From contig CAVYKI010000006.1 in assembly GCA_963769025.1 (NCBI GenBank), forward strand, positions 32,001 through 96,000: 64,000 nt of DNA, read 5' to 3'. Origin of the DNA: an uncultured Verrucomicrobiae bacterium (GTDB lineage Bacteria > Verrucomicrobiota > Verrucomicrobiia > Chthoniobacterales > Chthoniobacteraceae). Position numbers and translations under genes: made by a program. The notes under the pieces were generated by a model that saw nothing but the letters and a program-made list of their open reading frames with translations, ran no database searches and was not told the DNA's origin. Shown here in pieces: positions 356-31,036 of this stretch; positions within the stretch are counted from its first letter, which is position 1; each line of letters opens with the position of its first letter.

Positions 356-608
356 GGGTAAAAAATTTGAGGGCTGGCATTTTGCCGGCGCGCAGCAGGG
401 TCAGCGGCCGGTCTGCGTGCCTGCACTCGCGTGCATCACCCTCGCGCGACGCTAAGCATAGAGGTTTCGCAGGCAAGCTTCCGCTGCGCCGGCAGGTGGT
501 CGCGGTTTGGGATGGCGGCCCGTGCGCGAAAGGAACATCGCGCGGAGTGCAGGTCGCAAGACCGAGGTTTGCCTTGGCTTTCCGCGCTTCTGTGGAAACG
601 TCGCCCCG

Positions 609-8638: not shown

Positions 8639-11444
8639 TCAGACCCAATTGATGTCGCGGTGCTCGATCCCCGCGAAATTTTCGAGGCTGATCAGCAGCG
8701 CGCGCATCGCCCGTACGAACTCGTCGGCTTCGTCCTTGATCGCATCGACCTTCCCGGCGCGCGCGGTCATCTCGAGCATTTTTGCCGCGCCCCACGCGTC
8801 GGTGGCGTTGAATGCGCCGACCATTCCCTTGAATGCGTGCGCCGCCTTCGCGATGGCGTCGGTGTCGCCGTTCTGGATACCCTGGGCGAGATCGGCGAGG
8901 AGCCGCGGTGCGTCATTTTCGCGGCAGAGGATGATGACTTCGCCGAGCATGGCCTTGTCGCCGCCGAGGTTGTCCATCAGCGCATCGGGGTCAAAGAGCG
9001 GGCGTATCGGCGCAGCGGCCGGCGGGGGTGTCGCGGGAGCTGCCTTCGCGGCGGCTGGCGGCTGAATCGGCGTGGCGGGCTCGGGCGCGACGCTGCGGAT
9101 CGGCGCCGGGAGCGGAGCGGGTGCCGGGGCTGGAGCTTTCACTTCCGGTGCGGCTGGCCGCGGGTTCAAGCGGGGATCCGGCATCGGCGCGCGTTCCTGC
9201 TGGGACTGCGCCGTCGGCGCGGAAAAGACGGCGGACGTGGGATTGGTGGAAGCGTTCTTTGCCGCCTGCGCGGCGAGGAAGGCTTCACCGGTCGCACGGT
9301 CCACGAAAAGGTGCGGGATGAGCTGCGACATCGCGCCGATGAGCTCGGGCTGCCGCACGGGTTTGGAGACGTAGCCGTCCATGCCCGACTTCACGCACTC
9401 GTCGCGGACGCCCTTCAGGACGTTCGCGCTCAGCGCGAGGATCGGCGTGCGCGTGATGCCGCGCATTTTCTCCAGCTTGCGGATCGAGGCGGATGCCTCG
9501 AAGCCGCTCAGCCTCGGCATTTGCAGATCCATGAGGATCAGGTCGAAGTCCTTTTCCTTGTACGCTTCCACGGCTTCGGCGCCGTCGTTCGCGAGGGTGA
9601 CCTTGTGGCCCCAGCCCTCGACGTTGAGCTTTGCGAGGCGCTGGTTGACGGCGTTGTCCTCGGCGATGAGCACCTCGAGCGGGCGCTGCTCCGGCACGTT
9701 GCCGTTCTTCGGCACGGACATTCCGGAGTCCTTCTTCTGATCCTCGAGCGCCTTCGCGACGGCCATGCGCAGCGAGCGCGCGGTGACGGGCTTGATGAGC
9801 GTGGCGCGGATGGCCGCGTGCTGGTAGCGATCCATCTCGCCGAGGCGCGTGGAGGAAACAAGGAGGACGACGCGCGTGGAGGCGAGTTCCGGGTAGGTGT
9901 CGATCGCGGATGCGAGCTTCACGCCGGGGCTCTCAGGCCGCACGGCATCGGCGACGAAGAGATCGTAGGGCTGGCCCTGCGCCTTGGCGCCGCGCAGCTC
10001 GCTGAGCGCGCTGGTCACGTCGCGCACGGTGCGCGCATGCATCTGCCAGTTGTTCAGCAATTCGGCGGTGATGCGCAGGCTGTTCGGATGCGCGTCGAGG
10101 ACGAGGACGCGCAGGCCGCGGAAAGCCGCCACGGTGACGTCCTCCTTCGGTTCCTCCGCGTGCCGGTAGGTGAATTTCGCCGTGAAGCGGAACACGCTGC
10201 CGCGGCCCACTTCGCTTTCCACCTTCACGTCGCCGCCCATCAGCTGCACGAGCTGCTGCGTGATGGCGAGGCCGAGGCCCGTGCCGCCGAAGCGCCGCGT
10301 GGTCGAATAGTCCGCCTGGTTGAACGCCTGGAAAATCGTCCCGACCCGATCGGCGGGAATGCCGATGCCGGTGTCGGTGATGCTGAACGCGAGCTCCGCG
10401 TTGCCATCCACCCAGCGCGAATTCTCGACGCGGACGATGATCTCGCCGCGCTCGGTGAACTTGAGCGAATTGCCGACGAGATTGACGATGACCTGGCGCA
10501 GGCGGTGCGGGTCGCCGACGACGATGTCCGGCACCTCGGGGCGGATGTGCAGCAGAAGTTCGATGCCCTTGTTCTGGGCGCGCGGCGCGAGCGTGGTCAC
10601 GGTCTCGCCGAGCAGTTCGCGGAGGCTGAATTCCGTGCGCTCCAGGTCCAGCTTGCCGGCTTCGATCTTGGAAAAATCGAGCACGTCATTCAGCAGCGCG
10701 AGCAGCGAGTCGGCGCACGAGTTGATCGTCTCGAGGTAGTCGCGCTGGCCGGGAGTCAGCTCCGTCTGGAGGGACAGCTCGGTCATGCCGATGATGCCGT
10801 TCACCGGCGTGCGGATCTCGTGGCTCATCACGGCGAGGAATTCGCGCTTGGCGATGTTCGCCTCGCCGGCCTTGAACGCGAAGGATTTCACCTGCTCGCT
10901 CGCCTTTTCGAGCTGCTCGTTCATGCTGAGCAGGTCGCGGTTGTTCATCATCAGCCGCTCGCGATCGCGCCGGCTCACATCGACGACGCGGCTGAAAGCC
11001 TCGGCCAGTTCGCCGATTTCGTCGCTCGCGTGCGGGGAAGGCCAGATCCTCGCGTTTTCCCTCCGCGACCAGCGCGGCCTGCAGCGAGAGTTCGCGAATC
11101 GAGCGGGTCGTCCCGAGCACCATCTGGATCGCGACGAAAACGCCGCCGACAAGCCCGGCGCCGCCGCCGAGGAGCAGAAGTTGGGATGTCCTTTCGGAAA
11201 GGTCGGCGTAGCGCATTCCGAACGCTGCGACCGCGATCACGACATTCGGGATGATGAGCGCGAGCGCCGCGAGGAGCAGCCGTTGCCGCACGCCCAGGCG
11301 TACGCCCACACTTTCGCGGACGTCGTCGGCGGGACGCGGCGCGATCGCGGGAAGAAGGTCGTCCGGTGAGAACGAGTTCTTCCGGCGGTTCTTGGCCAGC
11401 TGGGGTTGTGGTTGGCTTGGCAGGACTACGGTGGGCACAGCCAT
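8639..11444 (-). CDS. Hybrid sensor histidine kinase (2 TM-HAMP-HisKA-HATPase-REC-REC-Hpt), indels near 11050
   Basis: [53 protein letters not shown]-terminus in ORF 10686..12014. Confidence 0.92.
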
Positions 11445-11570
11445 CCTGCAAAAGCAAACGGCGCGCCACATTTGCGCGTGAGGCCGCCCCTGATGCACTC
11501 CCTCGGGGCGAAACATCCGCTTTGCGAATCGCAGCCGCGTCCCTATCGTGCGCGTCCAGTCTGACACCTC

Positions 11571-12969
11571 ATGCCCAATCCTCCTGAAAAGCCGGCGACG
11601 CCCGGCGCGGTCCTGCTCATCGGCAATTACACCCAGGCGTCGCAACGCCACGAGGCCGCGAGCCTGCTGGAGGAACTGGCCGACCTCGTGAAGACGCTCG
11701 GCCTCCCGATCGCGGCCTGCGAACTCGTTCAGCACCGCGAGATGCACGCTCGATATCTCATCGGCAGCGGAAAGGCGGAGGCGATCGCGGAACGGGCGAA
11801 GGCGGAGAAACTCGGGGGCATCGTCTTCGATCACGATCTGTCGCCGAGCCAGCAGCGGAACTGGGAGGAACTCGCCGGCATGCCGGTCATCGACCGGCAA
11901 AAGGTGATCCTCGATATTTTCGCCCGCCGCGCCCGGACCCGCGAGGCGCGGCTGCAGATCGAGCTCGCGCAGATCGAATACGCGCTGCCGCGGCTCACCG
12001 GCGCGTGGACCCACCTCGGCGGCCGCATGGGCGGCATCGGCGGAAAGGGCGAGGGCGAGAGCCAGCTCGAGCAGGATCGCCGCCGCATGGGCCGCACGGT
12101 CGCGCAGCTCAAGCGCGAACTGGTCGAGGTGCAGAGCGCGCGCGCCACGCAGCGGAAGGATCGCCAGCGCACGCCGGTGCCGAATTGCGCCATCGTCGGC
12201 TACACGAACTCCGGCAAATCCTCACTGCTCCGTCGGCTGACCGGCGCGGATGTGCTCGTCGAGGACAAGCTCTTCGCGACGCTCGACACGACGACGCGGA
12301 AGGTCGCGCTGCCCTCGAAGCAGCCGCTGCTGCTCACCGACACCGTCGGCTTCGTCCGCAAGCTTCCGCACCGGCTTGTCGAGGCGTTCAAGGCCACGCT
12401 CGAAGAGGCGGTGCAGGCGGATTTTCTCATCCATCTGCTCGACGCGAGCGCGCCCGAGGTCATCGAGTTTCACCAGACGACGCTCGACGTGCTGCACGAA
12501 CTCGGTGCCGGCTCGCAGCCGGTGATCACGGTCTTCAACAAGGTGGACAAGGTCGCCGACCCGGCGACGATCCACCGCCTGCGCGTGCATTTTCCCGAGG
12601 CGCTCTTCATCTCCGTCCACACGGGCGAGGGGATTCCCGTGCTGCTGGAAAGAATGACCGAACTCGCCGCGCCCGGCACCGTCACGCGTGAGTTGCGGAT
12701 TCCCGTCCGCCGAGGCCAGCCTGCTCGCGCGGCTGCACCGCGAGGCGCAGGTGCATGAAATCACCTACGACGGCGGCGATTCGCTGGTGACCGTCACGCT
12801 TTCCAAGCGTTTCGCCGAGGAGTGCGCGCGGTTTGTCCAGCAGCCCACGCCCGCGGCCAAATCCCGCAAGAAATCCGCGGGCGATAACGTTTTTCGGGAC
12901 ATTGGGCCCGGAAAAAGCTATCGCAAAGCTGCGTCCACCAAAATGCGTAAAGCCCAACCACGCGCATGA
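11571..12969 (+). CDS. hflX: GTPase HflX (indel near 12710; exact 3' end uncertain)
   Basis: LSPSQQRNWE, ILDIFARRART, GYTNSGKSS, LFATLD, DTVGF, NKVD. Confidence 0.93.
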
Positions 12970-15900
12970 GTTTCCTCGACCGTTTCAAGCGAAAGCCGAA
13001 TCCGGAGGAACCCGTCGCGCCCATTCCGGAGCAGAAAAAAACCGAGCCCGCGAAGAGCCCCGCCCCTACGAAAGGCTCCGCTGCCGGCCAGCCGGCTGCC
13101 CAGAAGACTCCGCCGGCCGCGGATGAGGTCCGCCTCGAACTTGGTGACTTCCTTCACCGCATCCCTGCGCAGCTCCTCCTGCCCGGGCCGCACGATCTGA
13201 AGACCGAGCTGAGGTTCGACATCCCCGAACTTTCGCAACGGATTGCGAGGGGCGAGACCATGCTCAACCTCGCTGAGATTTACCGCAGGTTGCCGCAGAT
13301 TTTCCGCTCCGAGGTGCTCGAGGGCGACAATGTCGAGATCCGCTTCCCTTGGCAGAAAATCGCGAAGCTCGTGACCAACGTGAAGAGCACCTCCGGCGGT
13401 GCCGTGACCGAGCAGCCTTCCGCCGAGGGCGCCGGACCCGCGCTCGCGGAGAAGCTTCGCGCGAACAAGCCGGCCAAGCCGGGCGCGAAGACCGGGAAAG
13501 ATGCGCCCGCTGCTCCGCCGCCTGCGCCTGCGGGCCCGGTGCTGCCGGGACGCGGAGGCGCGGGGCAGGCCTCGTGGTTCTCGCGGACCGGAACTGACAA
13601 GCCATTGGAAAAGTCGCCGCAGTTTCCCGCACAAAAACCGGCCGCGCCGGATGCGGGAGCGACGCCTGCACCTGCCGCAGCAGCGGCAAAGCCAGCCGAG
13701 CCAGCGCTCCGCCTCACGCCGGCGGCGGCTCCTGCCGAGAAGCCCGCGGCAACCAAGGACGATTTGCAGCTCAGCGATCTGCCCGAGGACATCCAGCGCC
13801 GGGTGGCGGTGATCCGCGGCGATTACGAGCGGCAGCTCGCGGATCTGGAAAAGCAGCGCAAGGCGCTGGCCGAGGCGCGCGACCGCTCCGCGGAGGAGGC
13901 GGAGAATTTGCGCAGGGATCTCGAGAATGCCGTGAACCAGGTCGCGGAGGGCAACACCGCCGTGTCCATTCGCGCCGACCTCGCAGGCCGCGCGAACAAG
14001 GAGCGCGAGAAGATGCAGGAGGAGCTGAAGGCGAAGCACGACGAGATCGATCGGCTCAAGGGCGAGCTCGCGAAATTTGAAAGCGCCCCGCAGGCCCCCG
14101 TGGTGGCGCCGGGCGCGCGCACGAAAGGCGGGTCCGATCGCGCGGTGGAGGAACTCAACCGCCGCATCAAGGCCCTCGAGCAAACCCAGAAGCAGACCGC
14201 GCTGGAACTCGCACGCGAAAAGGAAGCGCGTTCGAAGGCGGAAAAATTTCTCGCCTCCGCCGACAAGCGGCAGGAGGACACCGCGAACTACATGGAGTCC
14301 GCGAAGCAGGAGATGCGGAAGGAGATCGAGGCGAGCGTCAAGCAGCGCGAAGCCGACATGCGCAAGGCGCTGAAGGATCTCCAGACGGAGGTGGACGCGC
14401 TCCAGGAACACAACGAGACCGTCAACAAGGACCTTGAGGCGGCCCGCCTGCGCGCCGCGCAACTCGAAGTGAAATTTGCCGACGCATCCGCGCCGGTGGA
14501 GCAGACGGCGGCGCTCCACGCCCAGACGGTGGAGCGGCTGGAGAAGGAAATCGAAGGCTACCGCGATCGCCTGAAGCTGCTCGTGCAGGAGCGCGATGCC
14601 GCCCGCGTGGAAAAGGAAAAGGCCGGTCGGGAAGTGCAGGCGAAGATCGACGCGGAGGCGAAGCAGGCCAAGGAGCGCGAGAAGGAGCGGGCCGCGGCCG
14701 AAAAACGGATCGAGGAAGCCGCGGCGCGTGTCGCATCGCTCGAGCAGCTCGCAAAGGCGAAGGATGGGGAGATTCGCGAGCTTCAGGGTGCGATCAAACA
14801 GCGCGACGCGGCCGGCAACCAGCTTGCCGAGCTGCGCGGGCAATACGACGCGCTGCAGGCGCAGCATGCGGAGGCTCATTCGCAGTTCACCCGCGAGCGC
14901 GAGGCGATCCTCCAGGAGCGGCAGCAGCTCGCGGGAACGCTGCGCGAGCAGACCGCCTCGCTCGAGCAGCAGCTCAAGGCGCTCGTCGTCGAGCGCGATC
15001 GCCTGCGCGGCGAGATGGAAGCCGGCAGCGTCCGTTTCAACACCGAGATCACGGGGCGCGAGCAGCTCGCGGCGAAGATCCAGGCGGAGCACGCCGCGGC
15101 GATCCATGCGCGCGACACGCTCACGAAGCAGCTCGCCGAGTCCGAGCGCGCATTCAAGGATTTGCAAAAGCAGAACGCCCGTCTCGCAAAAGCGGGTCAG
15201 GGGCTGCTGGCGGACCCGGTTCTGAAATCGGAGCTCGACCAGCTCCGCAAGCAGCTCGCCGCCGCCAACGAAGCCGAAAAGGTCGCGGCGGAGGCGCAGC
15301 AGGCGGCGGAATCCGAACTCGCGCGTCTTCGCGAGGAGCGCCAGAACGCGCTGGCCGGCGTGGCCGAGGAGCGAGCCACCTCCGAACGCCTCGAAGGCCA
15401 GATGGCGAAGGTGCAGGCCGAACTTGCGAAGCTGCGGAACAAGCTCGACAACGTGACGCGCGAGCGCGACGAGGCCGAGACGGAGATGCAGCGGGTGGCC
15501 ATTGCGCTTGCAGCGCTGGAGAAATCCGGAAAACAGGACATCACCAAGCTCACTGCGGAACGCGACGCGGCGCGGAAGGAAAAGGATCTGATCGCGGAAC
15601 AGCTCGCCGAGGCACGCGCGCACCACGAGCATCTGAGCGGATCGCTGGACAGCACGCGCCTGTCGCTGGTCACCGAGGTCGAGAAAACGCAGGACAAGCT
15701 CGCGAACTGTGCAGCGCCTGCATGAGCAGACGGAATCCCAGCTCGCCGCGGAGCGCGAGGAGCACGCGGAGAAACTGGCGGCGCTCCAGACGAAGCACGG
15801 GCAGTCGCAGGAAAGTTTTTCCTCGGAGCTCGAGAAAATCCGCAAGGAGCTCGCGGGCGCGTACGCGAAGATCGCGTCGAGCGAACAGACCCTTTCGGAC

Positions 15901-18900
15901 ACGACCCGCTCGGCCAATCAGGAGCGTGCGGCGCTGTTGAAGGAGAAGGCGGAAATCGAGCGGCGTGTCGCGGAACTCCAGAAGGCGATGACGGAGGCCG
16001 GACGCAGGGCCGGCGAGCAGGAAAAGGTGCTGAGGGCCGCCGTGGAGGAGATGGAACAGCGTCTGGCAAACACGGAGCGCACCCTTTCCGAGGCAAGGCG
16101 TGCGTCGGACGCGGAGCGGGCCGCGCAGGCGAAGGCGAAGGCCGAACTCGAGCGCCAGTTGGCCGAGACGCAGGGTGCCTTCGAGGAGGCGCAGCACGCG
16201 GCGCAGAGCCAGCACGCATCGCTTTCTTCCGAGCGGGATGAACTCCTCACCCGGCTGGAGTCCACGCTCCGCGCGCTGGAGGAGACGAAGCATTCCGCCG
16301 ATCAGGAAAATTTTGTCCTTTCGCAGCAGCGGGGCGAACTCGAGCGCAAGCTCGCCGAGGCGGAGGCCGCCCACGCGGAGGCCGTCCGCGCTGCCGACGA
16401 GGAGATGGCCGGGATCATCGAGGCGAAGGAGGAGCTGGAAGTGCGGCTCCTCGAGACGAACCAGACGATCGAGCACGAGCGCCACGCCGCCGAAGCCGCG
16501 AAGGCGGAACTCGAGCGCAAGCTCACGGCACTGACCGAAGCCTCGGCCGAGGTAAAGCGCGTCGCCGCCGAGGAACACGCAGCGCTTCAGGCGAACCTTC
16601 AGGATGTCCTCAAGACGCTCGACGAATCCCGTCGTGCCGCGCAGGAGGCGCAGAACGCCATCACCGCCGAGAAGGCCGAATTCGAGAGGCGGCTTGCGGA
16701 AACCGAGAAGGCGCTGGCCGAGGCCAAGCGGCAATCGGCGGAGGAATACGCGTCACTTTCCAAGAAGCACGATGAACTGAAGGCGAACCTCCAGGAGGTC
16801 ACCGCCGCTTTTGATGAAGCGCGCCGCACCGCGCGGGAGGAGCAGGCCGCGATGGCCGCGGAGAAGGCCGAGCTTACGCGGCGGCTCGCGGAGACCGAAA
16901 AAGAGCTGGCCGAGACCACGAGAGAGTCGGCTGAGAAGTATGCGGCGCTTTTCAAGAAGCACGAGGAGCTGGCGGGCAATCTGCAGTACGTCACGGAGGC
17001 GTTTGAGGAATCCCGGCGCAACGCGGAGAAGGCGCAGAGTGCCCTTGTCGCGGAAAAGGCCGCTCTCGAGAAGCGAGTGATCGAGGGTGAAAGCCTGCTG
17101 GCCGAGACGAAGCGGGTCGCGGGCGAGGAGTACGACGCGCTTTCCAAGGCGAAGAAGGAGCTGCAGGAACGGCTCGCGGAGAGCGTCCAGAGCCTCGTGG
17201 AAATCCGGCGGGCCGCGGCCGAGGAAGTCACCGCGCTGAATCACGCGAAGGCCGAGCTCGAGCACCGTCTTGCGGATGTCGAAAAGGCATTCGCGGAGGC
17301 GCAGCTCGCGGCTTCGGAAAAATACGAGGCGATCGCGGCGGAAAAGGCCGCGATTGAAGCGCGTTTCGAACAGACCGAGAAGGCGCTGACGGAATTGCGT
17401 GCGGAATCGACGCAGACGCAGGAAAGCCTGTCATCCGCGAAGGCCGGGCTGGAGCAGGCGCTCGCGGAAGCGCAACGCAAGGCTGCGGAGGAACGGAAGA
17501 CTTTTGAGGGGCTGAAGGCCGCGCTGCAGGGGCGGCTCGCCGAGCAGGAACATTCGCTGCAGGAGCTGAATGCGACCACGCGGCACGAAATCAACCAGCT
17601 CGCCGCGGAGAAGGCGGAACTGGAGCGTCACCTCGCCTCGACCGAGCAGACGCTCGCCGACACGCGGCTGACGACGGACAAGGAACACGCCGCGCTGGCC
17701 GCGACGAAGGGCCAGCTCGAAGAGCAGCTCGGCGAGACGGAGCGGACGCTGGCGGATGTCCGCAGGAGTGCGGCCGAGGAACACGGTGCGCTCACGGCGG
17801 CGAGGGACGGATTCCAGCGCAAGCTCGCGGAGACCGAGCACGCCCTCGCGGAGGCGCAGCGGCTGGCCGCCGATGAGCACACGGCGCTCGTCGCGGCGAA
17901 GGAAGATTTGCAGCACCGGCTCACCGCGACGGAGAGCAGCCTCATCGAGGCCCGCCGTCTCGCGGCGGAGCAGCATGGGACGCTTTCCGCGGAGCGGGAC
18001 GAATTGCAACGGCGGCTGGGGGAAACGGAAATCGCACTCGCGGCGGTCCGCGGGGAAATGGCGGCCGCGATGCGGGCAGCGGAAGAGCGGCATTCGCAGA
18101 TCGCGGGCGAAAAGGCGGATCTCGAGCAACGTCTCGCGGCCTCCGCTCAATTGCTCACGGACACGCGGCAGGCGTCGGAACAGGAGCACGCGGCGCTGGT
18201 GGCAGCGAGGGATGCCTTGCAGCGCCGGTTCAGCGAGACCGAGAGCGACCTCGCCGAGGTGCGACGTCTCGCGACGGAGGAACACGGCGCGCTTTCCGCG
18301 CAGAGGGACGCCCTGCAGCGGCGCATCGGCGAGATGGAGATCACGCTCGTCGAGGCGAACCGTGACGCCACAGAGCATCAGGCGACGCTTGCAGCCAGGG
18401 TGGGCGAACTTCAGTCCCAGCTCGCGGCGAGCCGGCATGAACTCTCGGTGGCGAGGCAGTCCACCGGCGCTGAGATCACCGCGCTTGGGGCGGCAAAGTC
18501 GGATTTGGAAAAGAACCTCGCGCAAGTCCGCGAGGAGATGGCGAACTCGGCGCGGGCGATGGATGAGCGGAACGCGCTCCTCGCGGCCGAAAAGACGGAC
18601 CTCGAGCAGCGACTCGCTGCGACGACGCAAGTGCTCGCGGAAACTCGGCAGGCATCGGAAAGCGGACACGCGGCGTTGGTGGCGGTCAGGGACGAATTGC
18701 AGCGCCGGCTGGGCGAAACCGAGGGCAGGCTCGCCGATGCGCACCGGGCCGCTGCGGAGCAAAAGGCGACATTCGAAGGCAAGGCTGGCGAGCTCGAGTC
18801 GCAGCTTGCAGCGAGCAGGGCGGAACTTTCCGGAACCCAGCACGCGCTCGGCGGGGAGATCGCGGAACTGTCGGCGGCAAAGACAGGATTGGAGAGGACG

Positions 18901-21618
18901 CTACAGCAGGTTCGCGATGAGATCGCGCTCTCGGGCCGCGAGATGGATGAACGGTATTCGCAGCTCGCGGAAGCGAAGGCGGGCATCGAGCAGGCGCTCG
19001 CCGCGGCGGAGCGGAAGGCCGCGGAGGATCGCAAGGGATTCGACGGGCTGAAGGCCGCGCTGCAGCGCCGTCTCGCCGACCACGAGGAGTCGCTGAACGA
19101 ACTCACGGAGATCACGAGGAGCGAAATCAATCAGCTTTCCGCGCAAAGGGCGGAACTCGAAACGCGCCTGGCTTCCACGGAGCAGTTGCTCGCCGACACG
19201 AGGCTGACAACCGGCGCGGAGCAATCCGCCCTGGCCGCCACGAAGGGTGAACTGGAGACGCGCCTTGCCGAGACGGAGCGGACGCTGGCCGAGGTCCGCA
19301 GGAGCGCGGCGGAGGAACGTGGCGCCATTTCCGCGCAGCGGGATGAACTGCAGCGGCGGATCGGCGAACTGGAGGGCGCCGTCGCCGAGTCGAACCGGAT
19401 CGCAGCGGAGCAACGGGCCAAGCTCGAAGGCACGACTCGCGAACTCGAGGCGCAGGTCGAGTCTGGCCGTCAGGAACTCGTCGCGGCGAGAGACGCACTC
19501 GGCGGGGAAATTTCCGCGCTCAGCGCGGCAAAGGCGGATCTGGAGAAGAGCCTCGCGCAGGTCCGCGATGAGCTGGCGCTTTCCGGGCGCGGGATGGACG
19601 AGCAAAATTCGCAGCTCACGGAAGCGAAGAACGCGATCGAGCAGCGGCTCGCGGAGACAAGCCGGACGCTGGCCGAGACGCAGCAGGCGCTCGAAGCGAC
19701 GCGCGGGGAGCTGGCGGATTCGCGGCGGCAGATCGACGAGGGACAGGCGCGGCTCACGGCGGTGAGGACGGAATTCCAGCGGCGGCTGGCCGATGCCGAG
19801 CACACGCTCACGGACCTGAACCGTTCCGCTCGGGAGGAAATCGCGGCGCTCGTGGCATCGAAGGAGGAGCTCGAGATCCGCCTCACGGAAGCCAGCCTCG
19901 CGATAGGGAATGCACAGGTGGCTGCGGACAGGGAACGCGCGTCCTTGGTCGCGGAAACGGAATCGCTGCATCGCAATCTTGCAGAATTGCAGGAGGCGCT
20001 CGCCACGACGCAGCAGACCGCGACCGGCCGGACTTCCGAGCTGACGGCGACGAAGGGCGAACTGGAAACGCGACTCGCGGCGTTGCAGAGCGCGTTCGAT
20101 GCTTCCAGGCAGAGTTTTGCCATGGAGATTGCCGGGCTTGTCGCCGCTAAGTCGGAGCTCGAGCGAAATCTCGCGGAGTCGCACCAAGCGCTCGCGCAGG
20201 CGCAGATGGCAGGCGGCGCACACTCAGAACTAGAAAGCCGTCTGGCTGCGACAGGCGGGCAGCTTTCTGCGATGCAGCAGCGCCTGGAGGAAGCCACGCG
20301 TGCTGCTGAGGAGGAACGTGCCGCCTTTGCCACGCAAAAGTCCGCGCTCGAAGATCGCCTTCAGGGCGCGATCCTCACGCTCGAGGAAGTTCGCAAATCG
20401 GCTGCCGGTGCCCAGGCCGCGCTCGCCGCCGACCGGGACGGAATCCAGCGCCGGCTCATGGCCGCCGAGGAGACGCTTGCGGAACTTCGCAATTCGTCTG
20501 ACACCGGCCGGGCTACCCTCCTCGCTGAAAAGGCGGACATCGAATCGCAGCTCGCGCAGGCATTGCTCGCCACCGCCGAAGCGGAGGCCCGTCTGCAGGC
20601 TGCCGCCGGGGCCGAGTCCCTCACGGCAGCCGTCCGCGCGGAGCGGGACCGCGCCGTGGCGGCGCTCGATGAATCGCAGCGCAGTTTCCGTGAAACCATC
20701 GCCGCCAATGCGCGCGAGACGGAGCACCTTCGCATGGCAGCCGACAGCATCCGGGCCGAACTCCTCGTCTCGCGCAAGATGCAGGTGGAGGTCCTGACCA
20801 CGCTCGAAAAGGAACGCGAACGCACCGCCGCCGAGCGGGCCGAACTCGAGCGGAACCTCGCCGCGGTGGATGACGCCCGGCAGCAGCTTTCCGCGGCGCT
20901 GGCCGAGAGCGAGCGCTCCGTGAAGGACCTCGGCCAAAAGCTCGGCGAGGCGACCCGGAGCAACGGCCACACTGCCGAGCGGCAAAAGGCGGAACTGAAT
21001 GAGATGAGTGATGCCTTGGAAACGGCGCGCCACGAGGCCGAGCAGTTACGGATGAAATTTGGCGCGGCGCAGGATGACTTCATGCGCCGCCTGCTCGCGC
21101 TCGAGGATAAGATCAATCTGGTCAACGCCGACCGGCAGCGCGTCGCGGCCGAGGCCGAAGCCGAACGGCAGGCTCATGCGAAGGAGCTCGCCGCCGTGGC
21201 GGAAGAGGCGCGACTGGCCGCGGCCGTGCGTGATGAGGCGTTCGCAAAGGCGGAGGCCGAGCGTGTGCGCCAGGTGGAGCAGATTGCCCGCGAACTCGAA
21301 GAAGCCCGCAGTGACATCGCGGCGCTCGAGGAGGAAAACGCCGCTGCGAAGGCGGGCCGCGAGGCCGTCGCACGTCAGCGCGACGACCTCGCCCGGCGCA
21401 TCGCCCGCATCACGGACGAACAGAAGCGCATCCTTGATGACCTTTCCGAACCCGATCCTTCCGAAGCCGGTCAGCGTTCCGTGCGCCCGACCGTGGTGAA
21501 GCCGCACATCGTCGAGATGTCGGATTCGGATCTTCTGCCTTCGCAGAGGGAGCGCGTCATCAACCTGCCGCCGGCGCGGCCCGCGTCCATCGCACCCCCG
21601 AAGGTGCGGACAATCTAG
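12966..21618 (+). CDS. Giant coiled-coil protein (~2,880 aa; ORFs 12966..15725 and 15709..21618 joined across one indel)
   Basis: E/A/R/L/K-rich helical composition, nearly Pro-free over >2,000 aa, continuous across the junction; 32-residue periodicity. Confidence 0.85.
15900..20600 (+). repeat. Intragenic 96-bp (32-aa) degenerate tandem repeat array; bounds approximate
   Basis: Consecutive 32-aa units such as AAEEHGALTAARDGFQRKLAETEHALAEAQRL / AADEHTALVAAKEDLQHRLTATESSLIEARRL. Confidence 0.8.
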
Positions 21619-22118: not shown

Positions 22119-23184
22119 CTACGCCAGTTCGCCGAGGACGGCGCGCAGGACGTTCGGACGGTTTGCGAGTTCGCGCGTGCCGAGGCCGTAACCGATGCGC
22201 TCGACTTTCATCGCGGGCATGAGGCCGAAGTTCGCGCCGAATTCCGCGACGATCCCAGCGCCGGTCGGCGTGATGAGTTCATGCGGCTCGTCTATCTGGC
22301 CGACGGCGATGCCTTTCAAAATCTCCAGCGTCGCCGGCGCGGGCACCGGGAAAATCCCGTGCGCGCATTTCACGGTGCCGTGGCCGTCATTGAGCGCTGG
22401 AGACGAAAACCTTCTCCACGCCGAGTGCCTCGATGCCGACGCAGGTGAGCACGATGTCCGCGATGGAATCGAACGCGCCGACTTCGTGAAAGTGGACGCT
22501 CTCCGGATCCATGCCGTGGATGCGGCCCTCGGCTTCGGCGATTCTGCGAAAGATGCCGAGCGCGTGCTTTTTGACAAACGGCGAGAGATCGCTCGCCTCG
22601 ATCAGGTCGCGAATCTCACTGTGCGACCGGCCGTGCTCATGCTCGTGTTCATGGCCGTGCTCATGCGAGTGGCCGTGCTCGTGGGAATGCCATGCTCGTG
22701 GCTGTGCTCGTGGGAATGTTTGTGCTCGTGGCATGTTCGTGCTCGTGGCTGTGCATCCTGCACAGTGCTCGCCATGCTCATGTTCGTGGCTGTGGGAATG
22801 CGTGCCGTGGTCATGCTCGTGCGTGTGCTTCAGCGCGGCGTGTTCCTCCTCGTGCGTGTGGCCATGTGCATGCTCCGGGTCGTGGTCGTGCTCGTGATGG
22901 TGGTGGACGTGAGCTTCCTCGCCGTGCTCATGCGTGTGCCCATGCTCGTGGCCGCCGCTGCATTCATGTCCGTGATCGTGATGCGTGCTGCCGTCGTGGA
23001 TGTCGAACTTCACGCCCTCGATCTCCTTCCGCTTCGCGCGGTCGTAGTGCATGTGGAAGTCGCCGAGGTTCAGCTTGCTCAGCTCCCATTCGAGCGCGCT
23101 GGGTTTCACGCCGAGGTCGATGAGCGCGCCGACCATCATGTCGCCACTGATGCCGGAGATGCAGTCGAGGAAGAGAGCTTTCAT
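22119..23184 (-). CDS. larC: Nickel insertion protein LarC, N-terminal part (LarC1) with long His-rich insert, several indels
   Basis: FLDCISGISGDM, AEAEGRIHG, VHFHEVGAFDSIADI, CAHGIFPVPAPAT, ELITPTGA, PNVLR. Confidence 0.9.
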
Positions 23185-23228
23185 GCGAGGGAGTTTGTCA
23201 GGATTCGTGCGGTTGCAAACAGCGAACT

Positions 23229-23971
23229 CTAGCGCGCGATCGGCGAGCAGTTCGGACTTCACCGCGGGAAGGCTCAGCGTCTTGTCGTAAAGCGCCTTGC
23301 CGATGATGCAGCCGTGCAGGGAGGGGATCGTCGCGGCCTGCAGCACATGCGCCGCCGTGCCGACTCCGCCGCTCGCGATGAGCTGCCCGCCGAGCGGGAC
23401 GATGGCCGCATTCACGCGCTCGGTCTCGGGAAAGTTCGGCCCCTGCAGCATGCCATCCGTCGCGATGTCGGTGTAGATGATCGTGCCCGCGCCCGCCTTC
23501 ACGGCGTTGCACGCGAGTTCGAGCGCGCTCTGCCCGGTCTCCTGCGTCCAGCCTTTCACGCTCACGATTCCGTTTTTCGCGTCGATGCCGACCGCGATGC
23601 GCTCGCGGCCAAATTCGCGCGCCATTTCGCGCGACGAACTCGAGCGACTCCGCCGCCTTCGTCCCGAGGATCACGCGCGCCACCCCCGCATCAAGCGCGC
23701 GGCGGATCGCCTCCACGTCGCGGATGCCGCCGCCGAGTTCACACGGAATGCCGACGGCGGCCGTGATGGCGCGGACGGATTCGAGATTCTGCTGCTTGCC
23801 GGAGAATGAGGCGTCCAGATCCACGATGTGCAGCCAGTCGCCGCCCTCGCTCTCCCATTGCCGCGCAAACGCGGCGGGATCGGACGAGTAAACGGTTTTC
23901 TGGTCGGCGCGGCCCTGGCGCAGGCGGACGACCTGGCCGGACATGAGATCAATGGCGGGATAGAGGAGCAT
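23229..23971 (-). CDS. hisA: ProFAR isomerase HisA (indel near 23630; stop inferred)
   Basis: LYPAIDL, VVRLRQG, LHIVDLD, GGGIRD, YTDIATDGMLQGPN, IASGG, GKALY. Confidence 0.92.
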
Positions 23972-24037
23972 GAGCCGCGAAGAAGTGGCGGGGAGATCCG
24001 CGCATGGCAAGTGCGCTCGTGCGGATTTTGGCCGCGG

Positions 24038-25471
24038 CTACTTCCAGAGAGGGTCCATCTGTTCCGCGTTCCATTTGTCCCACAGCGCGGAGAATTCCGC
24101 CACGCGGGCGGGTTCCTTGGCGGCGCGGTTGTTCGATTCGCCGATGTCCGCGGTGAGGTTGAAAAGCTGCCAGGCTCCGCCGTCGCGGATGAGCTTCCAG
24201 TCGCCATGGCGCAGCGCGTTCCTTTTTCCGACGCGCCAGAACAGCGTCTCGTGCGGACGGGTTGTGGATTCACCGGTGAGCAGTGGAACAAGGCTGACGC
24301 CATCCAAGGGAGCGCCTGCCGTGGCGGGCGCGCCTTTTGTGGCCGAGGCCGATGCCACGTTGAGCGCGGTGGCAGTGAGGTCGGTGGCGACGACGGGCGC
24401 ATCCAGCACGCGCGCGGGCACACGACCTTTCCAAGAAACAATGAACGGCACGCGGATGCCGCCCTCCCACAGCTCGCCTTTGCCGCCGCGGAGCGGTGCG
24501 TTGCTTGACGTGAGTTCCTTGGTCGGCCCGCCGTTGTCGCTGAGGAAGACGACGAGCGTGTTTTCCTCGATGCCGCTCGTGCGGAGTTGGTCGAGCACGC
24601 GGCCCACGCCGTCGTCGAGCTGCGCCAGCATCGCGGCGAAAATGCGGCGATGGATGTCACCGATGTGCGCGAACTTTTGCATGTAGGCATCCGCGCCCTG
24701 CAGCGGGCTGTGGACGGCGTTGTAGGCGAGGCAGAGGAAAAATGGCTGCGCCTTGTGCCGCTCGATGAATTCGCATGCCTCGCGTGTGAATGCGTCGGTG
24801 AGGTTCGCCTTTTCTTCCACCGGCTGGCTGCCGCGGAGCGTCGGATTGTCGGCATCGTAGTCGGGCTCGTGGTGCCCCATGTGCGTGCTCCACACGGTGC
24901 GGCCATCCGGCGAGATCCAGCGTCCCTGCGCGCCATTTGGCAGCGCCTTGCGGCGCAGCCATGTCGTCACGCCTGTCCACGGCGGCTGCACGTAGTAGTG
25001 CCCCTCGTGCAGGAAGCCGAAGAACTCATCGAACCCGCGCCGCTGCGGATGAAACGGCGCGGTGCCGCCGAGGTGCCATTTGCCCACGAGCGCCGTGGCG
25101 TAGCCGGAATCGCGAAGGCGATCGGCGACGGTCCTCTTCTCTACCGGCAGCCCGATGCCTGGAGCGGCGTTCTTCGCGCCGATGGGATTGAATTCAAACC
25201 CGAACCGCGTCTGATAGCGCCCGGTCAACAGCGCCGCCCGCGACGCCGCGCAGAACGGCGCGGTGACGTAGCCATTTGTGAACCGCGCCCCGCCCGCCGC
25301 GAGCCGATCGATGTTCGGCGTAGGAATCTCCCGCCCGCCGTAGCAGCCCGCTTCGCCGTATCCGAGATCGTCGGCGACGATGAAGACGATGTTTGGGCGT
25401 TCCTGCGCAGCGGCCACGAGCGAGATGTCGCCGAGGCAGCCGAGGCAGGCAAAGATCGTGAAAATCTTCAC
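24038..25471 (-). CDS. Secreted sulfatase
   Basis: RPNIVFIVADDLG, CAASRAALLTGR, GKWHLG, SDNGG, GGIRVP. Confidence 0.93.
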   Translation of the reverse strand: MKIFTIFACLGCLGDISLVAAAQERPNIVFIVADDLGYGEAGCYGGREIPTPNIDRLAAGGARFTNGYVTAPFCAASRAALLTGRYQTRFGFEFNPIGAKNAAPGIGLPVEKRTVADRLRDSGYATALVGKWHLGGTAPFHPQRRGFDEFFGFLHEGHYYVQPPWTGVTTWLRRKALPNGAQGRWISPDGRTVWSTHMGHHEPDYDADNPTLRGSQPVEEKANLTDAFTREACEFIERHKAQPFFLCLAYNAVHSPLQGADAYMQKFAHIGDIHRRIFAAMLAQLDDGVGRVLDQLRTSGIEENTLVVFLSDNGGPTKELTSSNAPLRGGKGELWEGGIRVPFIVSWKGRVPARVLDAPVVATDLTATALNVASASATKGAPATAGAPLDGVSLVPLLTGESTTRPHETLFWRVGKRNALRHGDWKLIRDGGAWQLFNLTADIGESNNRAAKEPARVAEFSALWDKWNAEQMDPLWK

Positions 25472-25481
25472 GGATCAAAAG

Positions 25482-26834
25482 TCAGACGAGGTCGGTAAGC
25501 GTCCCGGTGCTGTCTGAGAATTTCTCCTGCTCCACGCCCATCTTCTGCGCGACGGAGAGCAGCACATTTGCGAGCGGCGGATGACTTTCCGGGTCGTGCG
25601 CGATGTGCTGGCCGTGCCTGAGCCCGTAGGCGGCGCCGCCGGCGACAATGAGCGGGAGGTTTTTCGGCGAGTGTTCGCCGCGCGGGCCGCTGTTCATGCC
25701 GGAGCCGTAGACGACCATCGTGTGATCGAGCATCGGGCGGCCGCCCTCGTCGGTGGACTGGAGGAAGGTGAGGAAGCGGCTGAGTTTCGAGAGGTATCCG
25801 CGATCGACGGTGGCGAGTTTTTCGAGCATCCCGGCATCGCCGCCGTGGTGCGAGAGTTCGTGGTGGTTTTCGCCGCCGATGCCGACGTCCGCCCGCCTCG
25901 CGCGCCCATTCGAAAGTGATCACGCGCGTGGTGTCCGTGGCGAAGGCGAGGTAGCTGAGCTCCAGCATGACATCGAGCCACATCGGCCGGTCGTGCGCGT
26001 CGCCGGGCTTGCTGTTGAGCTGCAGCCCGGCGGATTCGACCTTCGGCTTCGGCACGTCCACCCATTCCACCTGCCGCTGCACGCGCAATTCGGTCTCGCG
26101 CACGGAGGCGAGGTATTCGGCCAGCTTGGCCTGGTCGGCGCGGCCGAGCTTCTTTTCGAGCGCCTTCGCCTCGGCGAGGACGTCGTCGAGGATGCTCCGC
26201 TTTTCGGCGTAACGCCGGAGCGTGGCTTCGCGCGAGGCGGCGTCGTCGGGGACGAAGAGGCGCTCGAAGAGCCGTTGCGGACTGTTCTCGGCGGGGAGCG
26301 GCGTGCCGTTGCGATCGAAGGCGAGCGTGTGGCTGTGCAGCGCGGCGCCGGTGCCGGACTGATCGCCGATCTCGAGCGACGGGAAGCGGGTCTTCGCGCC
26401 GACCTTTTCCGCGATCACCTGATCGACGGAAATCGTGTTGGTGTAGTCCTTGCCCGGCACCGCCTTGAGATCGGCGCCGGTGAGCCATGTGTCGCCGCCG
26501 CTGTGGCCGCCGGTGCATCGCGGATGGCCGAGCCCGGTGAGCACGCTGAAATTTGCGCGGTGCTCCTTCAGCGTCTCGAGCGTGGGCGAGAGCTTGTAGT
26601 CCGCGGCCTTTCGAGCCGGGCACCCATTCGAGGATGTTCACGCCATTCGAGACGTAGCAGAAAATGGCGCGCGGCGTGGGCTTCGTGCCCGACTTCGCGC
26701 AGCGGCCTGTAAGTCGAGGGCGCGGCGTGAATCGCGCGCGGCAGCATGGCCTCCAGCAATGGCAGCGAAAGCGAGACGCCGAGGCCCCGCAGCGCGGTGC
26801 GACGGGAAAGGGGGGTGTGAAAGATCGGGTTCAT
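25482..26834 (-). CDS. DUF1552 family protein (Tat-like signal), indels
   Basis: SRRTALRGLGVSLSLPLLEAM; ISVDQVIA; TRFPSLE; SILDDV; MLDHTMVVYGSGM. Confidence 0.85.
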
Positions 26835-26847
26835 GGGCGTGGCGGGT

Positions 26848-29416
26848 TTACTTGGTGGCGAAGGCTTCGGACGTGGCGATGGCGGTGATGAGCGAGCGCA
26901 GCGTGTAGCGGTCGCGCTTCATCTGCGCGACGAAGCTGCGGATCGCGGGGCGATCGGAAAAGCCGAGTTCGCGCCCGAGCGCGTACGTCGTGAGCTGGTT
27001 GGCGAGCGCCGTCGAGGAAGAGATCCTCCTTCTTCAGAAGCTGCTGCTGCAGCCCTTCGACGCCTTTGAACTCCGTGCCATCGGGCATCTTCGCGCTGGC
27101 GTCGATGACGGGGTCGTTCTTGTCGATGCGGCCATTGTAGCCGTGGCCCTCCTGGTCGCGCCATTCGCCGGTGGCGTTGAAATTTTCCAGCGCGAGGCCG
27201 AGCGGATCGATCTTGTCGTGGCAGCGCGCGCACGACGCGGCCTCGCGGTGAATCTGCGAGGCGCTGCCGCACGGTGGCCTTGTCGATGCCGGGCACCTTG
27301 GACTGGATCTCGCCGACATTCGCCACCGGCAGCCCGGGGTCGGTGCCGAGCAGCGTCTTCAGCACCCACACGCCGCGCACGACGGGCGAGGTGCGCGTGC
27401 CGTTGGAGGTGATGCTGTGCATGGATGCCTGCGTGACGAGTCCGCCGCGATGCGACTCCGGCGGCGCGGGCACGCGGCGGATCGCGTCGCCCTTCACGCC
27501 GGGGATGCCGTAGAAGCGCGCGAGGCGTTCGTTGATGGTGACGAAGTCGCTCTTGATGAGGTTGCGCGCATCGAGATCGCCGCGGAGGATCTCGCGCGAA
27601 GAAGCCTTCCGTCTCGCGCACGATGGAGAGTTCGAGATGCCGGTCGTATTCCGGGTACAGCGTCTTCGACGGCGGATTCGCGCCGACCTTGCGCAGCCCG
27701 AGCCACTGGCCGGCGAAGTTTTTCACGAAATCGCCCGCTCGCGGATCGGCGAGCATGCGGTTCACCTGCGCGCGCAGCACGGCGGGCTTGGCGAGTTCGC
27801 CCGCTGCGGCGAGGCGGAAGAGTTCGTCATCCGGCATCGAGGACCACAGGAAATAGGAAAGCCGCGACGCGAGTTCGTAGGGAGTGAGCGCGCGCGGCTT
27901 CGCCTGCGGCGCCTCGGGCTCCACGAGGTAGAGGAAATGCGGCGAAGCCAGCACGGCGGCGAGCGGCACCTTGATCGCCTCGGTGAACGTCGGCTTCTCC
28001 GCGCGATGCTTCTCGAACAGCGCGACCTTCGCATCCACCTCGGCCGCGTTCACCGGGCGGCGGTACGCGCGCGCCATGAAGCGCGTGATCACTTCCCGCG
28101 CGTACGCCTTCTCGTCCCTGTCCTTGTTCGGCGACGCGAACAGCACGCGCTGGTGGCTCGGCGGCGGCCAGCTCGCATGGACCGGACCTTCGAGCTCGAT
28201 CCAGTCGATGAGCAGCGTGGGCCGGGCGAACTCGTCCCTCCCGGTGAATGCAGAAGTTCTCCAGCGCCCGCGGGATGCTCGTACGCGTAGCTGAAGCCCA
28301 CGCCGGCCTTCTGCGTGCGTGAAGTGCGCGCGCACTTCGTACACCTGCGGCGCGCTCTCGGGCGCCGCGATGTCCATCTCCGCGATCACCTCGCGGCGTG
28401 CCGCCGAGATTCTGCGTGATCTTCACCCGCGGCGGCCCGTAGTCGTAGCTGCGATGCGTGGCGAAATGCTCGGAGCGTATTTTCAAAATCGCGGTCGTGA
28501 TACGCTTTGCCCTTGGGGTTCTTCGCCATCTGCTCGTCGCGCCGCTTTTCGAGAAGCGGCGTCACCGAGGCAACGACCTCCTCGCGCGTCGGCACGCGGC
28601 CCGCCGCGCGGAAGCGGATGACGTACTCGCCTTCCACCGGCACCTCGAAATCGCGAAAGCCCACGCCCTTGTCCCAGGACTCGTGGTGGATGACGGTGAA
28701 GCCGTTTTCCGTCGGGTTCTTGCCGTCGTTGAGCAGGATGTTGTTCCCGTCGCGCTTCACCCGGTAGCGGTCCCGCCCAGTCGTGTTTTCCTCCGGCTCG
28801 AAGCGCCACTTGATGCGCCGGCGGCTGCGCGCCCTCGACCAGCGCGCGGTCGAGGATCTGCCGCGCCGTCGCGTAGTACAGCTCCACCTGCATCGGCGAC
28901 ATCGTGAGCGCCTGGCCGATGTTGTCGAAGCCGCCCGCCGGCGGATCTTCGGGAAATTTCTCCGACGGCATGAAAATCCACGCCCACGAGATCGCGGATC
29001 GTGTTGTCGTATTCCGCGCGGTTCATCCGGCGCAGCACCACGCGGGTCGAGCGCTTCGCCATCTCCCCGCGCGCCAGTTCGCCGTCCAGCCATGCGGCAA
29101 ATTTCGCCGCAGCCTCCGGCGTCGGCTGCTTCTCATCCTCCGGCGGCATCTCGTGCGCGTTGACCGAGTTCACGACCTCCTTCCACTTCGTAACCGCGGA
29201 CGGATCTCCGAAATCATTGGCCAGCGTGTCCAGCCGCAGCTTTCCCTTCTGCTTTTCCGGCCCGTGGCACGAGACGCAGTGCTCCTTGAGGAATGGCTGG
29301 ACGATGTTGCTGAAGCCCGCGTGGTCAGGCTTCAGAGGTTGCCCGTCCTGTGCGGAGACATTGGCGAAGTGGGCGAGCGCGCAGGCGACGGAGAAAAGCG
29401 GGAGACGGGGGTGCAT
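26848..29416 (-). CDS. Planctomycete-type cytochrome c / DUF1592-DUF1588 multi-domain protein, indels
   Basis: CVSCH and CARCH heme motifs; RRMNRAEYDNTIRDL; ELASRLSYFLWSSMPDDEL; RGGLVTQAS; TSPVVRGVW. Confidence 0.85.
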
Positions 29417-29596
29417 TGACGAATCAGTGGAGGTCGGGCGTCCTTGCGCTGCCGGTGAAAGCTTCGCATGTCACGCTGGCTCGCCGTCCGCGCGCGAGCG
29501 CGTGGGTGGCGGGCGAATGCGCGATGCGCCATGTGGAAAGGGAGGAGTTCAACGGCTGTTCGTATGCACCCGGCAGCGGGTGAATAGAAGGACGTT

Positions 29597-31025
<1,429 letters not shown>

Positions 31026-31036
<11 letters not shown>

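Follow-up and report, generated by a model that had tools for sequence, protein, structure and literature searches.

We analyzed a 64,000-nt stretch of DNA (hereafter the window) from an uncultured Verrucomicrobiae bacterium of the family Chthoniobacteraceae (assembly GCA_963769025.1, contig CAVYKI010000006.1, positions 32,001 to 96,000), which contains a giant gene directly downstream of hflX (Table 1). As written, the window holds two open reading frames (ORFs) at this locus, 12966..15725 (919 amino acids (aa), starting with ATG) and 15709..21618 (1,969 aa), both on the + strand, in different frames and with a 17-nt overlap. The two ORFs are one gene. With one extra base dropped, the restored protein is 2,883 aa long, which agrees with the ~2,880-aa protein of a preliminary description of this DNA, a protein obtained only by reading both ORFs together. 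The restored protein contained no Cys and only two Trp, at residues 129 and 204.

The reading frame was restored by comparison with relatives. We sought matches to the first ORF in 41 related genomes and found them in 27, and in 23 of the 24 remaining genomes of its genus. Its closest orthologs, in four genomes of this genus, were single open frames of 3,087, 2,799, 2,250, and 2,417 aa with no stops, and all four were colinear with the window, following frame 1 first and frame 2 after. The ortholog alignment was ungapped over the junction, running through ...QDKLAN into VQRLHEQTESQLAAE..., and therefore exactly one extra base lies between AAC (15705-15707) and GTG (15709). Hydrophobic phase was also unbroken over the junction (0.83, 0.80, and 0.79 in segments spanning it). 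The junction near 15715 flagged in the preliminary description is thus a one-base frameshift and not a gene boundary. Read contigs from one public run, which held 7% of the sampled words, reached 15200-15301 and 15743-15779, short of 15708.

Other genes in the window were interrupted in the same way. Frame switches, judged by aligning the window to intact ORFs of relatives, were found in the DUF1501 gene (31042-29600, - strand, four changes), hisF (23248-24034, - strand, one at ~23629), larC (22122-23229, - strand, at least one, at ~22397), hflX (one at ~12700), a histidine kinase gene (9449-11468, - strand, one at ~11027), and a gene at 58025-56884 (- strand, two changes). Amino acid identity of 58-93% was kept on either side of the switches in all of these genes. 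Given the switches in conserved genes and a genome completeness score of 83% despite only 13 contigs, we infer that the assembly is indel-prone, and the extra base at 15708 is very probably an assembly error. Automatic annotation of this genome will miscall or fragment the giant gene, hisF, hflX, and others.

Table 1 Features of the giant gene and genes near it, in window coordinates.
Feature	Position	Strand	Remarks
Giant gene	12966..21618	+	2,883 codons after discounting one extra base at ~15708
Basic amphipathic peptide MSFLDRFKRK	12966..12995	+	Ortholog conservation, hydrophobic moment, charge
Head domain, ~residues 53-145	13122..13400	+	Alpha/beta fold predicted by AlphaFold2
Pro/Ala linker, ~residues 146-265	13401..13760	+	Composition; two short conserved motifs
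Rod, first part, residues 266-914	13761..15707	+	Mixed heptad-like periodicity; 60-62% identity to orthologs
One-base insertion site	15708	+	Exact base within 15705-15709 not resolvable
Array of ~44 32-residue units, restored residues 975-2408	15889..20190	+	7+7+7+11 pattern
C-terminal rod segment	20191..21450	+	Common to shorter homologs of the genus
Pro-rich tail	21451..21615	+	HIVEM (family motif VIE[VI]); end INLPPARPASIAPPKVRTI (family LP+[IV]RPV..xPPxV)
hflX (ribosome-associated GTPase)	11571..12969	+	Pfam GTP-bdg_N, GTP-bdg_M, MMR_HSR1; frameshifted at ~12700; gcgcATGAgtttc
Hybrid histidine kinase	8639-11152	-	HisKA, HATPase_c, two receiver stretches, Hpt; divergent from hflX
Sulfatase	24038-25471	-	Downstream of the giant gene, opposite strand

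The rod (residues 266-2800, ~2,535 aa) was composed of 20% Ala, 16% Glu, 11.4% Leu, 10% Arg, and 0.2% Pro, and a stretch of 2,078 residues, between 752 and 2829, was free of Pro. In a Fourier spectrum of hydrophobicity, the rod had one sharp peak at 3.556 = 32/9, with a power of 13.2 compared to 0.16 ± 0.16 in 200 shuffles. There was no peak at the canonical heptad period of 3.5 (power 0.33, shuffles 0.14 ± 0.14) or at the hendecad period of 3.667. Stacked in rows of 32 residues, the units gave the consensus.LAE.RRALAE..AAL.A..AELE..LAE..., with nine core columns per unit spaced 3,4,4,3,4,3,4,3,4, or three heptads plus one hendecad. The core columns were 54-86% hydrophobic and rich in Leu. The register map consisted of ~7 units (975-1198), an 18-residue step (7+11), 32 units (1217-2240), a 7-residue step, and ~5 units to ~2408. 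Each interruption was a whole heptad/hendecad multiple, so that the hydrophobic seam stays in phase from ~residue 770 to 2370. The C-terminal rod segment had a phase and period unlike those of the array in sliding-window spectra, and the C-termini of the proteins at loci L015 and L016 aligned to it with 29-36% identity. The same 3.554-3.556 peak was found in the four long orthologs (powers of 9-17 vs. ~0.9 for the best shuffle peak), and shorter homologs of the genus had peaks of 3.51-3.55 with lower power.

The 32-residue units had a mean pairwise identity of 21%, and at the DNA level Tandem Repeats Finder (TRF) detected no tandem repeats of the modules, only four tiny arrays. By sequence, the modules are old and diverged. 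In the pair of orthologs closest to each other (85% identical), the only gaps were of 64 and 96 aa, equal to two and three modules and 76 residues apart. More distant orthologs (53-60% identity) had gaps that were not clean multiples of 32, in a range where alignments of repeats are ambiguous, and of the comparisons between orthologs the 85%-identical pair alone is informative. Rod growth in this lineage has been by whole 32-residue modules. We also observed a long-range internal duplication, in which restored residues 1505-1632 and 2017-2144 (window ~17479-17862 and ~19015-19398) lie 512 residues, or 16 modules, apart, with 26% identity at this offset compared to 15-20% at neighboring multiples of 32. 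The duplication suggests that many modules were copied together as blocks.

An AlphaFold2 (AF2) model of eight units, built from 19 aligned rows of in-register blocks taken from the window and its orthologs, was one unbroken helix (residues 2-255, mean predicted local distance difference test score (pLDDT) 90.4). A predicted homodimer of two copies of residues 623-878 of family representative P0002 had a score of 0.07 (mark, 0.32), which speaks neither for nor against a dimer. The charge pattern of the rod had a single periodicity, 32/5 = 6.4 residues (power 15.2 vs. 0.36), a local acidic/basic alternation, and none at 32/1 or 32/3, the periods of long-range charge zones. PMC8016460 gives 3.63 residues per turn for an undistorted helix, with lower values leading to left-handed bundles. 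Since 3.556 is below 3.63, the rod would form a left-handed supercoil, looser than that of a heptad coiled coil. At the textbook value of ~0.1485 nm per residue, a module would measure 4.75 nm and the rod ~375 nm. The 64- and 96-aa gaps point to a rod that is a parallel in-register homo-oligomer, most simply a dimer, because a parallel homodimer tolerates such gaps anywhere and an antiparallel or folded-back rod would become unpaired.

The N-terminal peptide MSFLDRFKRK carried a net charge of +3, and its helical hydrophobic moment of 0.67 fell at the 97.7th percentile among all 10-mers of the protein. It was kept as M[SK]FL[DN]RF[KR]RK in orthologs and found in 76 of 150 listed family representatives. 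MSFLDRFKRK resembles N-terminal membrane-targeting helices, for example that of MinE, and is a possible helix for binding to the membrane or to a partner. A low-complexity stretch separated it from the head, for which AF2 predicted a small alpha/beta domain at ~residues 50-145 with pLDDT 82-93 (40-row alignment). The head had no match in Pfam at E ≤ 10, none in the PDB by sequence profile, and none in the PDB by Foldseek at E ≤ 0.001. Among 48,161 chains compared by VIA-align, the best Z was 3.7, for an SsgA-like protein with a root-mean-square deviation of 8.8, which is within noise, and the ESM Atlas returned only hypothetical clusters of Verrucomicrobiota with scores of 0.82-0.83, below trust level. 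The head of ~90 aa, as modeled, is without a recognizable known fold.

Residues 1-265 were 17.7% Ala and 15.1% Pro, and the linker motifs LAEKLRA..KP and LPGRGG..SWFSRTG were common to P0006, P0007, P0032, and P0036 in an alignment. At the other end, the final 55 residues contained 10 Pro and terminated in INLPPARPASIAPPKVRTI. A tail motif of the type LP.[IV]RPV...PP.V was found in 33 of the 150 listed representatives and in 28 of the 45 of these with at least 900 aa. In representatives of that length a VIE[VI] motif generally came before it, and both are present in the window protein. Among the open frames of the genome, the tail motif occurred in the giant gene only, plus three apparent chance matches. 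The head-rod-tail layout of the preliminary description therefore holds from end to end: its ~80-aa globular block coincides with the AF2 head, and its Pro/Ala linker, helical rod of ~2,500 aa, and short Pro-rich tail are each matched by the composition and periodicity reported here.

No Pfam, NCBIfam, PHROGs, or PDB family claimed the giant protein in library searches. NCBIfam matches were weak (SMC_prok_B 39.6 and 53.6 bits vs. a cut-off of 567, ASRP 82.6 vs. 300, and Rad50_Sulf 31.6 vs. 1000), and all 2,883 aa lacked the Walker A motif [AG]xxxxGK[ST]. There was no candidate for a hinge or a CxxC zinc hook in a protein with zero Cys, no Pro from 752 to 2829, and eight units modeled as an unbroken helix. 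SMC, SbcC, and Rad50 were excluded on the lack of a P-loop and of a hinge or hook, and on scores that were below cut-off and restricted to the arms. Resemblance to these proteins was limited to hundreds of residues of coiled coil and a weak profile similarity in the arm regions, whereas the giant protein has no ATPase head. A phage tape measure was rejected with 0 PHROGs matches at E ≤ 0.001 and a neighborhood of histidine kinase, hflX, larC, hisF, and sulfatase genes. We found no transmembrane helix or signal peptide (highest 19-residue Kyte-Doolittle mean 0.76), and an exported fibril was rejected since the protein is without signal peptide, transmembrane segment, and C-terminal sorting signal. 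On a cytoplasmic protein that lacks a signal peptide, transmembrane helix, and Walker A motif and is not SMC, the preliminary description and the searches agree, and the match to SbcC or a tape measure that would have counted against that description was not found.

To define the family, we searched residues 1-160 with phmmer against 1.84 billion representative proteins. At E ≤ 0.001 the search matched 338 clusters, and at E ≤ 1e-10 it matched 196. The head was N-terminal in 149 of the 150 listed representatives, which ranged from 41 to 2,236 aa, many of them fragments. The sole other case, P0152 (883 aa, Chthoniobacteraceae), had a head-like match at residues 734-851 and an FGE-sulfatase domain in its N-terminal part. 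The few named members were proteins from metagenome-assembled genomes (MAGs) of Chthoniobacteraceae, called 'hypothetical' or, once (in IMG), 'chromosome segregation ATPase'. A scan with one genome per species yielded 58 loci, all from MAGs, labeled Chthoniobacterales, Chthoniobacteraceae, Spartobacteria, or Verrucomicrobi*, with a few Prosthecobacter or Akkermansia. Of 201 genomes sampled in the window's order, 65 had the head (64/200 without the unpublished genome G194), from 8 of 16 sampled families, and forms longer than 2,400 aa were found in three genera, all within the window's own family. Members with both conserved ends ranged from 693 aa (P0048) to 3,086 aa (L011). In these searches the family, which is uncharacterized, was restricted to Chthoniobacterales-type Verrucomicrobia of soil and freshwater, and it has two conserved ends and, between them, a helical rod of very variable length. 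Full-text literature searches, with most subscription journals outside their coverage, returned nothing on the family or on a 32-residue coiled-coil module, and the topics of coiled coils in Chthoniobacter and of coiled-coil genes downstream of hflX also returned nothing on the family.

A second architecture with the head was also present, with a start of the MGLFDHLFK type, the head, a region of ~20% Pro, and a distinct C-terminal domain with a C-terminus like ...FVPGVREKLVAIADEL. The window's genome contains a paralog of this architecture on contig C9 (~1048240-1048920, - strand, 503-aa open frame). A Roadblock/LC7-like C-terminus of the contig C9 paralog, judged by eye, was dropped since it had no Pfam match.

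The gene upstream, hflX, was the only conserved neighbor. Its ortholog ORFs matched 11571-12704 in one frame and 12700-12942 in a second. The ORF carrying the frame of the HflX C-terminus (12688..12969) closed with a TGA overlapping the ATG at 12966 with which the giant gene starts (ATGA). hflX lay upstream on the same strand in 7/7 of the loci fetched first and in 52/58 loci overall, raw counts that are inflated by the shared ancestry of the genomes. Four of the six loci without an upstream hflX had <500 nt of upstream sequence, and the other two, L068 and L074, had 1.5 kb and 4.5 kb. Among 39 unique loci, the gap between the hflX stop and the start of the giant gene was -4 (ATGA) in six and ≤93 nt in 37, with the rest at 166 and 209 nt. 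Adjacency was kept down to 62-66% HflX identity. In the window, the + strand had no terminator-like site between the two genes, and scanning the surroundings of both gene ends for promoters and terminators was likewise negative on this strand. From this arrangement, we infer that hflX and the giant gene form a co-transcribed operon, and in some species they are probably translationally coupled. The operon link to HflX was undescribed in the literature searched. We rejected a role for the giant protein as a substitute for HflK/HflC, since the genome has Band_7 genes at other places, two of them side by side, and neither Foldseek nor VIA-align showed the head to be SPFH-like. Three features escaped the preliminary description: the exact module of 32 residues, the family that spans the order, and the close coupling with hflX.

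We favor, with moderate confidence, a reading in which the giant protein is a scaffold or tether, made of a parallel coiled-coil rod with two binding ends. The rod would be a parallel coiled coil, in register, with a weak left-handed twist, and in the simplest case dimeric. At one end, the N-terminal helix and the head would fix it to the membrane or to a partner; at the other, the C-terminal peptide would serve as a short linear motif for recruiting a second partner, as far as ~375 nm away. Coiled coils can serve as molecular spacers (PMC5082667), and golgins are attached through one terminus, from which they are predicted to reach into the cytoplasm for capture or tethering (PMC4707255). The likeness to a golgin-type tether lies in a one-end-anchored rod that projects a distant binding site, where the anchoring of the giant protein would be through a 10-residue amphipathic peptide; the difference is that golgins are eukaryotic and the host of the giant protein is bacterial. 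We consider it rather improbable that the protein is, more specifically, a membrane-anchored tether of ~0.2-0.4 micrometers in Chthoniobacterales, with a rod that is a previously undescribed 32/9 (7-7-7-11) coiled coil and evolves by gain or loss of whole 4.75-nm modules, that through its conserved, sometimes overlapping, coupling with hflX places ribosome-splitting/rescue activity, or ribosomes, at a set distance from the membrane or pole. If true, a tether linked to hflX would constitute a new class of bacterial long-range structural element. The preliminary description had proposed a cytoskeletal element, a polar scaffold, or a molecular ruler. The ruler proposal is weakened, and a fixed ruler role would be unlikely, because two-ended members span a four-fold range in length and close relatives differ by whole modules. 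The natural whole-module length variants offer a ready-made ruler-swap comparison.

Several observations weigh against the scaffold or tether. The amphipathic start named in the preliminary description is borne out by its moment and charge, but 12% of shuffles of MSFLDRFKRK attain the same moment of 0.67 and its amphipathicity is unexceptional for its composition. The register profile was derived from the same array that it scores, which favors register 0. The AF2 helix of the monomeric rod would be equally expected of a single alpha-helix domain. Across the 58 loci there was no conserved partner gene besides hflX and no conserved partner downstream, where the largest cluster comprised 7/58 loci in a crude clustering of ORFs (high GC content creates many shadow ORFs). 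Nothing in what is known of HflX would require a rod of 375 nm. A true frameshift in the strain also keeps a small probability, as the read contigs do not span 15708.

The most serious alternative, which we nonetheless regard as unlikely, is a self-assembling cytoskeletal protein like those of intermediate filaments (IF), of the crescentin/FilP/Scy type, in which rods would pack laterally into filaments or a submembrane lattice and the conserved ends would serve mainly in assembly. This reading and that of a scaffold or tether are not mutually exclusive. Head-rod-tail layout, a mass dominated by the rod, and the lack of a nucleotide-binding motif all fit it, and the layout and missing cofactor motif are shared with crescentin and FilP. 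The rods of those two proteins are a few hundred residues long (vs. ~2,535 in the giant protein), and there is no homology to them. The IF-like class is defined by function rather than homology, its key property being filament assembly in vitro and in vivo without a cofactor; its head-rod-tail form dominated by a coiled-coil rod is found in the giant protein. Long-range charge zones drive staggered packing in myosin-type, filament-forming rods, whereas charge power in the giant rod is confined to 32/5. Lattices usually fix length, yet rod length varied more than four-fold among two-ended members, and close relatives differed in it by whole modules. The searches showed no sequence link to any IF-like family.

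The closest precedent in this class is Scy, the polarisome scaffold of Streptomyces coelicolor, described in PMC3718342 as 1,326 aa with a unique, non-canonical coiled-coil domain of 1,226 aa. The two share a very long cytoplasmic coiled coil, a non-heptad repeat, which is a further point for an IF-like protein, and a role as a scaffold with partner-binding regions (PMC3718342), the last being a proposal for the giant protein. The giant protein has no sequence relation to Scy and begins with a globular head, whereas Scy has a short canonical coiled-coil N-domain. It is also hflX-linked, is assembled from 7-7-7-11 units of 32 residues, and exceeds Scy more than two-fold in length, with a rod of 2,535 residues against 1,226 (PMC3718342). 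The analogy with crescentin, FilP, and Scy drawn in the preliminary description is thus apt for layout, but it does not extend to a sequence family, and the 32/9 period is neither a heptad nor the repeat of Scy. The latter is said to have been described by Walshaw et al. 2010 as a 51-residue unit. Mycoplasma pneumoniae has a cytoskeletal protein of the terminal organelle, HMW2, that is ~1,800 aa and almost wholly coiled coil; it belongs to another phylum and has no detected homology to the giant protein.

We give little credence to a rod that is an antiparallel fold-back hairpin, in the style of SMC/Rad50 arms, of ~190 nm and with the head meeting the tail, or a monomeric helix spacer of the ER/K type. 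The AF2 monomer was one long helix without a partner, charges alternate with a period of 6.4 residues, and the array (975-2408) is roughly centered in the rod (266-2800), such that a fold in mid-rod would pair array with array. However, the 2,078 residues free of Pro and the absence of Cys left no hinge, loop, or zinc-hook candidate, and the insertions of 64 and 96 aa between close orthologs, both on the same side of the rod and separated by 76 residues, would leave a hairpin unpaired. Single alpha-helix (SAH) domains are recognized by a very high content of E+K+R and no hydrophobic seam. An ER/K single helix was rejected, with 30.7% E+K+R in the rod and a Leu-rich seam present; core columns up to 86% hydrophobic are unlike ER/K helices.

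A real frameshift, leaving two genes or a pseudogene, would divide the locus into a 919-aa protein of head and rod and a separate 1,969-aa protein of rod and tail from GTG 15709. We consider this very improbable. The sequence as written does contain a stop (15723-15725) and, at 15709, a GTG that could serve as a start, the insertion site lies outside any homopolymer run, and the contigs from the single public read run confirm neither state; against this stand the four long uninterrupted orthologs, ungapped at the junction, the rod repeat phase that continues through it, and at least ten further frame switches in conserved genes of the window, hisF and hflX included. Finally, a known long-coiled-coil machine (SMC/SbcC/Rad50 ATPase), phage tape measure, or secreted fibrillar surface protein is extremely improbable, since the IMG name of one member and weak NCBIfam matches to SMC, ASRP, and Rad50 are outweighed by scores of 15-83 bits, in profile arm regions only, vs. 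cut-offs of 111-1000.

No part of the bacterial cytoskeleton is less well understood than its long coiled-coil proteins, and the cases studied come nearly all from a few cultured model organisms. In kind, the giant protein would belong with bacterial coiled-coil-rich structural proteins; its apparently new features are the unrecognized head fold, a very regular and unusual periodicity, and the undescribed hflX link. A clean natural 32/9 period held in phase over more than 1,400 residues is useful for rules of coiled-coil geometry and for the design of long rigid spacers.

Around the hflX locus, an 890-aa + strand ORF over the histidine kinase gene was a shadow frame (identity to relatives 90% on the - strand vs. 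75% on the + strand). Downstream of the giant gene, larC, hisF, and the sulfatase gene lie on the opposite strand and are convergent with it. They are followed by a Planctomycetes/Verrucomicrobia-type cluster at 25468-31042 (- strand) with DUF1552/HXXSHH, PSD4/PSD5 = DUF1592/DUF1595, and DUF1501. Near the start of the window, at 507-2186 (+ strand), is a gene for the exosortase EpsH.

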